Shown in pieces: positions 5,406-21,381 of a stretch of 64,000 bases of DNA. The notes below the pieces were generated by a model. It was not told the DNA's origin. It made no database searches and was given only the letters and a program-made list of their open reading frames with translations. The stretch covers positions 13,950,001 to 14,014,000 of the forward strand of contig NC_090366.1 of assembly GCF_035084215.1 (NCBI RefSeq). Direction: 5' to 3'. Within the stretch, counting starts at the first letter, position 1. Each line of letters begins with the position of its first letter. The DNA is from Heptranchias perlo (Eukaryota). Position numbers and translations under genes: made by a program.

Positions 5406-5451
5406 ATGTCCCGACCAGAAATAGCTGCATGTTTCCTGGCACTAGTGCAAG
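5406..5451 (+). CDS. Siglec-like coding exon 1: signal peptide MSRPEIAACFLALVQ(G)
   Basis: ACCATG start and hydrophobic leader. Phase-1 donor G|GTAAG at 5452; upstream acceptor tttccctttcAG at 5376. Confidence 0.75.
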
Positions 5452-20400: not shown

Positions 20401-21381
20401 AGATACGGGGGGGGGAAGGGGCTGGAAACTCGGGATCTGTCTCCCAGTGAGGATCAGTCGCCCAATGAGGATCGAATACTCACTGGGTATCTTCTCCAGT
20501 GGCAGTCTGTACTCAGCGAGTGTCTGAACATGACCGAGGATTCACGGACCCTGCCTGGGGTACAGACGCCCCATTGAGCGTCCAAACCCCAGTGAGGGTA
20601 TATACCCCATGTCCCAGGGTGTGGTCTAATCATGATTGTGGTTCCACATCTCCAGGACAGAAGAGGAAAAATGGGAACAAATTCAACTTATCGTTCTCTT
20701 TAGGAAGGATGTCAAGGCCTTGGAGAGGGTGCGGGGGAGATTTACCAGAATGGGACCAGGGATGAGGGACTTCAGTTACGTGGAGAGACTGGAGAAGCTG
20801 GGATTGTTCTCCTTGGAGCAGAGAAGGTTAAGGGGAGATTTAATCGAGGGGTTCAAAATCATGAGGGGTTTTGATGGAGTAAATAAGGAGAAACTGTTTC
20901 CAGTGGCAGGAGGGTCGGTAACCAGAGGACACAGATTTAAGGTAATTGGCAAAAGAACCAGAGGGGGAGATGAGGAGACATTTTTTTCACATGGAGGGTC
21001 GTTATGATCTGGAACGCGCTCCCTGAAAGGGCGGTGGGAGCAGATTCCATGGGAAGTTTCAAAAGGCAATTGGACATGTACCTGACGAGGACTAATTTGC
21101 AGGGTTATGGGGAAAAGAGCCAGCACGGGCACGACGGGCCGAACGTCCTCCTTCTGTGCTGTAAGATCCTACGATTCTACGATTTCCAGATTGTGCAGGA
21201 CACCGCGGCAGATGCTTGGGTTTACGAGAATCCTCAGGAAAGCTCTGGACAGGGGAACGGCTGGCAGGACGAGCCGGAAACCCAACTTTACGCCAATCTC
21301 GACTGCTCCAAACCGCCCGTCAGCGACGGGTTCGAAAACACCGACTATGCGCCTCTTCAACTTTCACCGCGTGAAGTGTAA
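5406..21381 (+). CDS. Siglec-family (sialic acid-binding Ig-like lectin; MAG/CD22/CD33-related-like) type I membrane receptor, 9 coding exons, ~629 aa (gene span)
   Basis: Exons 5406-5451, 7915-8259, 8826-9125, 12689-12964, 13797-14072, 16096-16380, 19290-19392, 20032-20098 and 21190-21381 all have AG/GT boundaries and compatible phases (1,1,1,1,1,1,2,0). They total 1890 nt with no internal stop. Domain order is leader-V-C2-C2-C2-C2-TM-cytoplasmic tyrosine motifs. Confidence 0.88.
5575..6215 (-). mobile_element. L2-clade LINE 3' fragment
   Basis: AETLIRAFVPSRLDYSNALLAGLP...LIQNSAA...FKILILVFKSL, and a 3' tail GCGCTATATAAATGCAAG with (GTT)n. Confidence 0.85.
6495..7040 (-). mobile_element. 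Non-LTR retrotransposon (CR1/L2 group) 3' fragment
   Basis: LDTIQDKAVRLIG...HWRTVAAVC...[28 protein letters not shown]. The same family occurs at 34948-35375, 36188-36615 and 59520-59625. Confidence 0.7.
7110..7850 (+). mobile_element. CR1 3' fragment with internal 51-bp tandem array (7110-7432)
   Basis: About six in-frame repeats of [17 protein letters not shown], then GHKYKI...[14 protein letters not shown] and the CR1 3' UTR. Confidence 0.85.
7915..8259 (+). CDS. Siglec-like exon 2: V-set sialic-acid-binding domain
   Basis: GAWCLDWSASIPTTVTAQRGLCAVIPCTY...GIWYK...GDLRSRDCSLVINDIKLSDRGLYRFRIE...KYSY. Siglec hallmarks are the GLCxxIPC Cys pair, DCSL, the YxFR essential Arg and the G-strand aromatic. 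345 nt, phase 1-1. Confidence 0.93.
8366..8703. repeat. 15-bp minisatellite (GTGTTTGATGGGTCA)n
   Basis: Direct tandem repeats in the intron after the Siglec V-set exon. Confidence 0.9.
8826..9125 (+). CDS. Siglec-like exon 3: C2-set domain 2
   Basis: DRPDKPII...EGDPVNISCTFVSNC...PTLKW...STILTFVPSFSHQNKVIRCKV. The extra Cys is positioned for the Siglec D1-D2 disulfide. 300 nt, C|GTAAG donor. Confidence 0.92.
9295..12445. repeat. 30/31-bp C/A-rich minisatellite, ~100 copies
   Basis: Unit CATCCCTCAAACCCACCTACCCATCTCATCA, filling most of the intron between Siglec exons 3 and 4. Confidence 0.95.
12689..12964 (+). CDS. Siglec-like exon 4: C2-set Ig domain (copy A)
   Basis: SPKETAV...EGDNVTLSCFSKSNPPATNYSWF...WFYCTAGNTLG. 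Strong acceptor ttttattttctttcAG, donor GTAAGT. 276 nt. Confidence 0.92.
13055..13630 (+). mobile_element. L2 LINE 3' fragment (between the duplicated Ig exons)
   Basis: LADLHWFPVRERLNFKVLILVFKSLHG, followed by an L2 tail. Confidence 0.85.
13797..14072 (+). CDS. Siglec-like exon 5: C2-set Ig domain (copy B, duplicate of exon 4)
   Basis: Six nucleotide differences from exon 4 over 276 nt, identical splice sites, offset 1108 bp. Confidence 0.88.
14155..14692 (+). mobile_element. L2 LINE 3' fragment
   Basis: LLAGLPSPTLRKLQLIQNSAAP...LDFKILILVFKSL, with tail GCACTATATAAATGCAA. Confidence 0.85.
14990..15755 (+). mobile_element. Deu-domain SINE with ~13-copy 33-bp array; 3' end cut by an antisense CR1 tail (15755-15925)
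   Basis: A-box-like TGACTCAATGG, B-box-like GGTTCGAGCCC, and an array at 15118-15542. Confidence 0.8.
16096..16380 (+). CDS. Siglec-like exon 6: membrane-proximal C2-set domain
   Basis: YRPKVLLHSNCTRAAAVTCVCSVRANPPARTWW...ALCVGSNRQG. The C...CxC pattern is typical of the MAG domain 5 / Siglec membrane-proximal domain. 285 nt, AG|GTAAGA donor. Confidence 0.9.
16517..17263. repeat. 63-bp minisatellite, left half (inverted relative to 4722-5195)
   Basis: Unit CAAACACTCCCAGGGCAGGTACAGGGTTAGATACAGAGTAAAGCTCCCTCTACACTGTCCCAT. Confidence 0.9.
17264..18797 (+). mobile_element. 5'-truncated CR1 LINE with uninterrupted reverse transcriptase ORF (17333-18715)
   Basis: PEDWRTANVVPLFKKG, NYRPVSLTS, QHGF, DFSKAFDKV, GVPQGSVLGP and FADD motifs, a 3' stem-loop region, and a (CTATGACT)n tail. 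Confidence 0.95.
18797..19204. repeat. 63-bp minisatellite, right half
   Basis: Resumes in register after the CR1 tail. Confidence 0.9.
19290..19392 (+). CDS. Siglec-like exon 7: transmembrane segment
   Basis: DVGDPLWMMIKEGLYGGLVTAGIMCSLCLLMVIL. Acceptor ttcttcttgtAG, donor CA|GTAAGT, phase 1-2. Confidence 0.85.
19510..19995. repeat. 58-bp G-rich minisatellite, ~8 copies
   Basis: Unit GATAGGGGAGAGTGTACAGGGGCTGTGGGAGGAGATTAAATGGGTGGGGAGAGTCCGT. Confidence 0.9.
20032..20098 (+). CDS. Siglec-like exon 8: juxtamembrane cytoplasmic segment
   Basis: (Q)KRRVRECNRAPMDTARHDPVPQ, with basic stop-transfer residues right after the TM. Phase 2-0, CAG|GTAAG. Confidence 0.78.
20698..21185 (+). mobile_element. 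CR1 3' fragment ending immediately before the last Siglec splice acceptor
   Basis: [11 protein letters not shown]...[20 protein letters not shown], with tail CTACGATTCTACGATT. Confidence 0.85.
21190..21381 (+). CDS. Siglec-like exon 9: cytoplasmic tail with tyrosine motifs
   Basis: IVQDTAADAWVYENPQ...ETQLYANLDCSKPP...ENTDYAPLQLSPREV*. Contains YEN (YxN), QLYANL (ITIM-like) and TDYAPL (ITSM/ITIM-like). ATTAAA at 21514-21519 downstream. Confidence 0.82.
   Translation: MVQDTAADAWVYENPQESSGQGNGWQDEPETQLYANLDCSKPPVSDGFENTDYAPLQLSPREV

Follow-up and report, generated by a model that had tools for sequence, protein, structure and literature searches.

The stretch of DNA analysed here, referred to as the window, comprises 64,000 nucleotides of contig NC_090366.1 of Heptranchias perlo (13950001-14014000) and holds a gene for an immunoglobulin (Ig) receptor of the Siglec family; the gene's coordinates are given as window positions and those of its surroundings, where so marked, as contig positions. 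Its nine coding exons, with AG/GT ends (Table 1), join into 629 amino acids and a stop, a model that is letter-for-letter identical to RefSeq XP_067831462.1 ('myelin-associated glycoprotein-like isoform X2') and that bears out the nine-exon receptor of about 629 residues proposed in an earlier note on this DNA. RefSeq isoform X1 carries 29 additional tail residues, and isoform X3 is devoid of the tyrosine-bearing tail. An AG acceptor before 5377 suggests a non-coding exon upstream of the first coding one. Acceptors of exon 6 other than 16096 were rejected, since they either break the reading frame or give a longer exon behind a weaker pyrimidine tract.

Transcript evidence was drawn from four contig sets of one sample and one study, which were RNA-like by the tool's guess (none being recorded as RNA). 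The GT..AG joint between exons 8 and 9 (20098-21190) was found spliced in all four runs, and the one leading to the isoform X1 acceptor (20098-21103) in three of the four, at a depth similar to that of the short form. Together with one loose contig end at the exon 7-8 joint (single run), this limits read-based splice support to exons 7-9, where the spliced-read check proposed in the earlier note came out in favour of the model. The X1 acceptor extension (21103-21189), located where a repeat remnant ends, likely arose by exonisation. Over 12450-15100 repeat contigs dominate and no joint between the two Ig4 exons was seen, which we do not count as contrary evidence.

Table 1. Features of the Siglec gene (window positions).
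Feature	Position	Strand	Evidence
Coding exon 1, signal peptide	5406..5451	+	
Exon 2, V-set sialic-acid-binding-type domain (Ig1), Cys37, Cys42, Cys92	7915..8259	+	Pfam V-set 4e-10; PDB Siglec-5, MAG, CD33
Codon of essential Arg110 (= MAG R118)	8196..8198	+	alignment
Exon 3, Ig2, C2-type, extra Cys160	8826..9125	+	Pfam
31-bp minisatellite, ~103 copies, in the intron where orthologues hold the Ig3 exon	9280..12440	.	
Tandem duplication unit 1, 1,108 bp, high-copy repeat tails at bounds	12482..13589	+	
Exon 4, Ig4-type copy in position 3	12689..12964	+	
Tandem duplication unit 2	13590..14666	+	
Exon 5, Ig4; DNA ~97% identical to Ig4 exon of adjoining paralogue B	13797..14072	+	
Exon 6, membrane-proximal Ig5, extra cysteine pair as in MAG Ig5	16096..16380	+	
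Exon 7, transmembrane helix; most hydrophobic 19-residue stretch without charged residue	19290..19392	+	
Exon 8, juxtamembrane tail	20032..20098	+	
Alternative acceptor extension, 29 amino acids in frame, isoform X1	21103..21189	+	3/4 RNA-like runs
Exon 9, tail: Tyr578 (VYEN), Tyr600 (QLYANL, decayed ITIM), Tyr619 (TDYAPL), stop	21190..21381	+	
3' untranslated region	21382..22808	+	RNA-like contigs to ~22808, just past AATAAA at 22795

The gene encodes a Siglec, as shown by its V-set domain, Arg110 and the Siglec cysteines. Exon 2 matched both V-set and Ig_CD22 above the Pfam cut-off, exons 4 and 5 matched Ig above it and exons 3 and 6 below it, and the overall layout is that of the family (an N-terminal V-set domain, then C2-type domains and a single transmembrane segment). 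The closest PDB relatives of the exon 2 V-set are Siglec-5, MAG, CD33, Siglec-8 and Siglec-7. The cysteine pattern and essential arginine pointed out in the earlier note were recovered by alignment: Arg110 aligns with the FR arginine (strand F) of MAG, CD33 and Siglec-5, and Cys37, Cys42, Cys92 and Cys160 align with the MAG cysteines of the intra-sheet and Ig1-Ig2 disulfides (the bonds being predicted). An AlphaFold model (29-row alignment; mean predicted local distance difference test score, 82) comprises five beta-rich Ig domains, a helix (514-545) and a disordered tail; its best fold matches are MAG and then CD22, and the best PDB sequence match is also MAG. Judging from the alignment, Arg110 together with Tyr119/Ser120/Tyr121 would bind sialic acid.

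By sequence comparison, the gene is not MAG. In a tree of Ig1 and Ig2 (51 rows), which answers the V-set phylogeny proposed in the earlier note, it shows no MAG or CD22 orthology and groups with white shark and catshark proteins (orthogroup A, support 98/94). Orthogroups A, B and C (the latter two being other elasmobranch groups) form an elasmobranch clade (91/82) next to frog Siglecs (97/93), while ten MAGs constitute a separate clade (100/100) and CD22 has its own. Restricting the set to the 37 rows having Ig5 and adding this domain gave 100/99 for A and 97/93 for A+B+C. The approximately unbiased (AU) test rejects MAG+A (p=0.004) and, on Ig1+2+5, MAG+A+B+C (p=0.02); the data neither establish nor reject a single clade of MAG, shark A+B+C and frog Siglecs (69/42). 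In Ig1, the gene shares 32-40% identity with three reference MAGs, as against at least 52% among 14 true MAGs, so that the earlier view of the gene as too divergent to be MAG stands. When compared with the functional residues of MAG given in the accessible text of PMC5150538 and PMC7226832, the hallmarks WxxW, Tyr65 and Asn125 are absent, the equivalents of Arg118 and Tyr127 are kept and Thr128 is replaced by Ser. The same note had called the receptor uncharacterised and lineage-specific: the elasmobranch clade supports the second term at that level, whereas the gene is annotated in RefSeq and belongs to an old orthogroup rather than to one species.

No MAG proper was recovered from the genome, which was searched with the whole protein (under a stricter first look) and then again by domain. 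Paddlefish MAG Ig1 gave 29 matches, none of MAG grade, the best being this gene (44%, 76.6 bits; next 66.9), and coelacanth MAG Ig5 gave seven, at most 38% identical. None of the 27 V exons tested fell in the MAG clade, and six MAGs produced no alignment of at least 70 residues above 44% between hepcidin and the window end (614 kb), a region in which N is limited to two masked stretches of the window, of 342 and 308 bases, that lay outside the search. A weak further negative is that no chondrichthyan stood among the best 120 of 216 matches of paddlefish MAG in the protein collection. The assembly itself may lack the MAG gene. Older antibody work reportedly found MAG in shark myelin.

These searches bear on the reading that the gene is a fast-evolving shark counterpart of MAG, at work in myelin or, as teleost MAG may be, in myelin and blood cells. 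In its favour, the V exon is the genome's best match to paddlefish MAG Ig1 and the top one within the cluster for three of six MAGs, no MAG-grade exon was found genome-wide or in the 614 kb, the receptor resembles fish MAG in its five domains, its Ig5 cysteines and its three-tyrosine tail, and MAG comes out best in the PDB comparisons by sequence and fold; fish MAG, according to the available part of PMC7226832, has an immunoreceptor tyrosine-based inhibitory motif (ITIM) and occurs in blood cells. We nevertheless regard it as improbable, given both AU rejections, the low Ig1 identity and the missing hallmarks, to which we add that the orthologues of the gene are themselves only 46-47% identical in Ig1 and that coelacanth MAG Ig5 matches B and C genes, not this one.

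The stalk of the receptor has been rebuilt without a change in length. The orthologues of white shark, catshark and basking shark hold V, Ig2, a distinct Ig3, Ig4 and Ig5, while in Heptranchias positions 3 and 4 are both of the Ig4 type. The earlier claim that five domains were reached only through a recent duplication thus fails, as the orthologues already have five: the duplication replaced the ancestral Ig3 by an Ig4 copy and added no domain. We searched intron 3, which consists mostly of the 31-bp array, for an Ig3 remnant and found none; across the genome, an exon of gene B comes closest to white shark Ig3 (49%). Within the 1,108-bp duplication, 6 of 276 exon bases differ between the Ig4 copies, against 3 of 288 in the intron (p=0.33, not significant). 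An assembly artefact was ruled out by DNA contigs that contain both copy-specific flanks, a read support that is not independent because the assembly was likely built from that sample too. At the borders of the two units lie three similar tails of a high-copy repeat, an arrangement that fits unequal crossing-over between repeat copies, which would have duplicated Ig4; loss of Ig3 alongside, in either order of events, would keep the stalk at five domains.

The Ig4 exon has a history of its own. Its DNA is 96.7-97.5% identical to exons in three other genes of the cluster, namely two D genes and paralogue B, which stands head-to-head with this gene at a distance of 22.6 kb between the V exons. 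In the Heptranchias genome the likeness breaks off 12-20 nt beyond the exon borders, inside the introns. At synonymous sites A and B differ by 0.03-0.05 in Ig4, as against 0.62-0.70 in Ig1, Ig2 and Ig5, so that selection at the protein level cannot explain the likeness. In the DNA run the Ig4 exon reached a depth of 213 and the copy-specific flanks 43-63, a roughly five-fold excess that fits about five copies. The pattern recurs in all three species with both genes that were compared (white shark B, basking shark B, Pristiophorus A and Heterodontus A were left out): A and B share 88 of 93 Ig4 residues in Heptranchias, 93 of 94 in Mustelus and 67 of 93 in Scyliorhinus (95%, 99% and 72%), their other domains (Ig1, 2, 3 and 5) being 32-43% identical within these species and A-to-A Ig4 identity between orders being 57-63%. 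Sequences cluster by species or order in the Ig4 tree, while A stays together in those of Ig3 and Ig5, and for Ig4 the AU test rejects A as a clade (p=5e-5, with the near-identical Mustelus pair left free). Repeated single-exon gene conversion of Ig4 between A and B is the simplest and likely reading of these comparisons; the head-to-head layout would let Ig4, as the only long near-identical tract left, convert time and again.

The two D genes (contig 13630363-13642311 and 13697495-13709796) are inverted, have Tyr where the essential Arg would stand, and hold two Ig4-type exons each, one 97% and the other 88-89% identical to this gene's. The tree does not separate the Ig5 domains of the B and C groups, which in Pristiophorus share 67% identity, a hint that a second exon, Ig5, may have been exchanged between B and C.

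Could selection have kept the Ig4 exchange going, in that a shared Ig4 would allow mixed cis-dimers of Siglecs with different ligand domains and tails? Ig4 alone was homogenised, in three lineages, and the exon is also found in two genes in which Tyr replaces Arg; in the MAG dimer, as described in the accessible text of PMC5150538, Ig4 CC'FG pairs with Ig5 ABDE of the partner. We consider such selection unlikely, as head-to-head geometry and self-sustaining identity suffice without it, C-type genes retain their own Ig4 (~69% DNA identity), and among the Ig4 copies the non-synonymous difference (pN) is close to the synonymous one (pS); moreover, the N-glycan sequon at Asn405 lies near the site where, according to the same partial source, a glycan weakens the MAG dimer. 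A complex prediction for two Ig4-5 copies returned a score of 0.00, which is no answer, and was used neither way. Within our coverage of the literature, which left out most subscription papers and all supplements, nothing was found on shark Siglec clusters or Ig4 exon exchange. The exchange is a clean case of exon-scale concerted evolution between old, divergent paralogues, recurring in three shark lineages, and it misleads both domain-count arguments and whole-protein trees.

The cytoplasmic tail carries all three tyrosines named in the earlier note (Tyr578, Tyr600 and Tyr619). That note's description of the ITIM as non-canonical also proved right: QLYANL has Gln at -2 and misses the proximal consensus (I/V/L/S)xYxx(L/V) stated in the accessible text of PMC7226832. 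The orthologue ITIMs are LLYCSI, LLYCNI and ILYCNI, and position -2 is Leu or Ile in 3/3 orthologues and in 9/9 listed B and C paralogues, so the Gln is derived; orthologues and paralogues combine a canonical ITIM with TxYxxI. Two further suggestions did not survive. The YxN at Tyr578, put forward as a Grb2-type motif, is conserved in none of the three orthologues with a tail (YQC, YQC and YQH, without Asn at +2), and the ITIM with a distal motif, taken as a CD33-related layout, belongs to a three-tyrosine tail that is not a CD33-only mark because paddlefish and gar MAG share it.

According to the part of PMC8113834 available to us, SHP SH2 domains need a hydrophobic residue at pY-2, the C-SH2 domain of SHP-2 follows the consensus (T/V/I/y)XpY(A/s/t)X(I/V/L), and Asn at pY+2 marks Grb2 sites. 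TDYAPL fits this SHP-2 consensus and QLYANL does not; compared with the distal TxYxx(V/I), TDYAPL has Leu at +3. From motif matches, we reason that in a presumably leukocyte-expressed receptor whose tail would be phosphorylated, SHP-2 would dock on TDYAPL, perhaps weakly assisted by the decayed proximal ITIM, and Grb2 may dock on the two YxN sites. The transmembrane core is without a charged residue, which makes adaptor-coupled activation unlikely. The tail thus points to an inhibitory receptor whose proximal site has become weaker, a reading whose evolutionary part we hold to be highly probable and whose functional part stands at somewhat better than even odds. That drift in this lineage has instead turned the braking tail into that of a Grb2-type adaptor or a near-silent adhesion receptor would agree with the Gln at -2 (unlike the orthologues and the listed B and C paralogues), the new Asn at +2 of Tyr578 and the tail-less RefSeq isoform X3. 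It appears very unlikely to us, however, since all three tyrosines are kept, the distal motif fits SHP-2, and the tail is spliced in 4/4 RNA-like runs.

Taken as a whole, we give a probability of about 0.62 to the reading in which the gene, a member of an old shark orthogroup, encodes a type I membrane Siglec with five Ig domains that likely binds sialic acid via Arg110 and likely damps activation via SHP-2 on its last tyrosine, and in which Ig4 is likely kept alike by repeated gene conversion. Several points weigh against it: the catshark orthologue has Gln where the Arg stands; QLYANL is without the hydrophobic -2 residue needed by SHP SH2 domains, so inhibition may be weak; the trees were built without a mammalian CD33-related sequence; the other sharks are represented by protein models only (that of Mustelus A being partial, on a 46-kb scaffold); and the high-depth RNA contigs covering the Ig4 exon show alleles of paralogues, so that inclusion of both Ig4 copies rests on the RefSeq models (3/3 isoforms).

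The gene is the last in a cluster of 13 V exons (contig 13.55-14.01 Mb), with more V exons at 13.15, 10.2-10.5 and 3.4-3.6 Mb and on contig C14. Two hepcidin matches lie to the left of the cluster (13484361 and 13523731, at 13.48 and 13.52 Mb); in human, hepcidin, MAG and CD22 are neighbours. Tandem exon arrays are common in the cluster, and two C-type genes (contig 13578183-13620427) hold ten near-identical tandem Ig3 exons each, with 14 Ig domains and canonical ITIM + TxYxxI tails. The cluster's best Ig_CD22 match is another gene (13.87 Mb); a CD22-like run with two V exons (contig 13864640-13886895) and a V exon that is sialoadhesin-like by eye (contig 13744342) were not placed by the V tree. 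Pfam searches covering 132 frames of the window and 148 of the 280 in the cluster returned, besides Ig, only a galactosyltransferase and a phosphodiesterase. The former is a beta-1,4-galactosyltransferase gene (window 26383-39588, minus strand; Glyco_transf_7C 8e-22 at 29527-29706; C-terminal exon near 26383-26541), presumably B4GALT3-like and tail to tail with the Siglec; the latter belongs to a cyclic nucleotide phosphodiesterase gene within the cluster (contig 13824044-13826121). Intron 6 contains a stop-free frame of 492 codons (window 17237-18712, plus strand) within a 63-bp tandem array, which in our view resembles a LINE reverse transcriptase.

In the accessible text of PMC7226832, fish genomes are described as being without inhibitory CD33-related Siglecs, with MAG as one of four conserved Siglecs. 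This shark contrasts with that view, as its cluster of 13 V exons includes genes with an ITIM and no MAG could be recognised, which makes it possible to test directly, in chondrichthyan genomes and glial RNA, when MAG arose relative to myelin. A preprint (10.1101/2022.01.24.477350), in the part accessible and citing others, places MAG as older than myelin. A more speculative proposal, which we think has little chance of being right, is that sharks are without MAG proper and that their hepcidin-linked locus holds MAG-shaped inhibitory Siglecs, in which one stalk exon (equivalent to the MAG dimer domain), having stayed interchangeable throughout the history of sharks, would let different tips and tails form mixed dimers.

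Among known systems, MAG (Siglec-4; mouse PDB 5lf5 and fish MAG) resembles the shark gene in the V plus four C2 domains of the shark orthologues, the extra Ig5 cysteine pair, the essential Arg, the Tyr127 equivalent, the three-tyrosine tail (paddlefish, gar) and the place in a hepcidin-linked cluster. The shark gene differs in being only 26-29% identical overall, fast-evolving and outside the MAG clade, in having no WxxW, Tyr65 or Asn125, and in the replacement of Ig3 by Ig4. The YxN motif of CD22 (Siglec-2) is a Grb2 site; this motif and the Ig_CD22 match on Ig1 are shared, whereas CD22 has seven domains against five and its own clade, and the best Ig_CD22 match belongs to another gene of the shark cluster. 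With the CD33-related Siglecs (Siglec-5, -7, -8, -10 and CD33) the gene has in common an Ig1 that matches Siglec-5 best (same KYSY strand), the general arrangement of an ITIM-type motif and a distal TxYxx-like one (with Leu at +3), and a large unstable cluster with duplications and conversion; unlike them, it has a non-canonical proximal ITIM and sits in an elasmobranch clade that is nearest to frog Siglecs in one tree, none of the trees having included mammalian CD33-related members.

The closest parallel to the Ig4 exchange is offered by SIGLEC11/SIGLEC16, which lie head-to-head and 9 kb apart, and SIGLEC5/SIGLEC14, with conversion at the V-set end (available text of PMC5701461, PMC6288428 and PMC13358205). 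These primate pairs likewise join head-to-head neighbours with species-wise clustering of the converted region, independently in several lineages (PMC5701461, PMC6288428, same partial texts). Their tract, as far as these texts go, comprises the initial exons, which encode the V domain that binds the ligand, and links an inhibitory to an activating receptor, whereas in shark A and B it is one internal stalk exon, the V domains are 36-41% alike and both genes have tyrosine-bearing tails. Concerted evolution in Siglecs is itself known, and conversion limited to a stalk exon constitutes a well-supported new variant of it.

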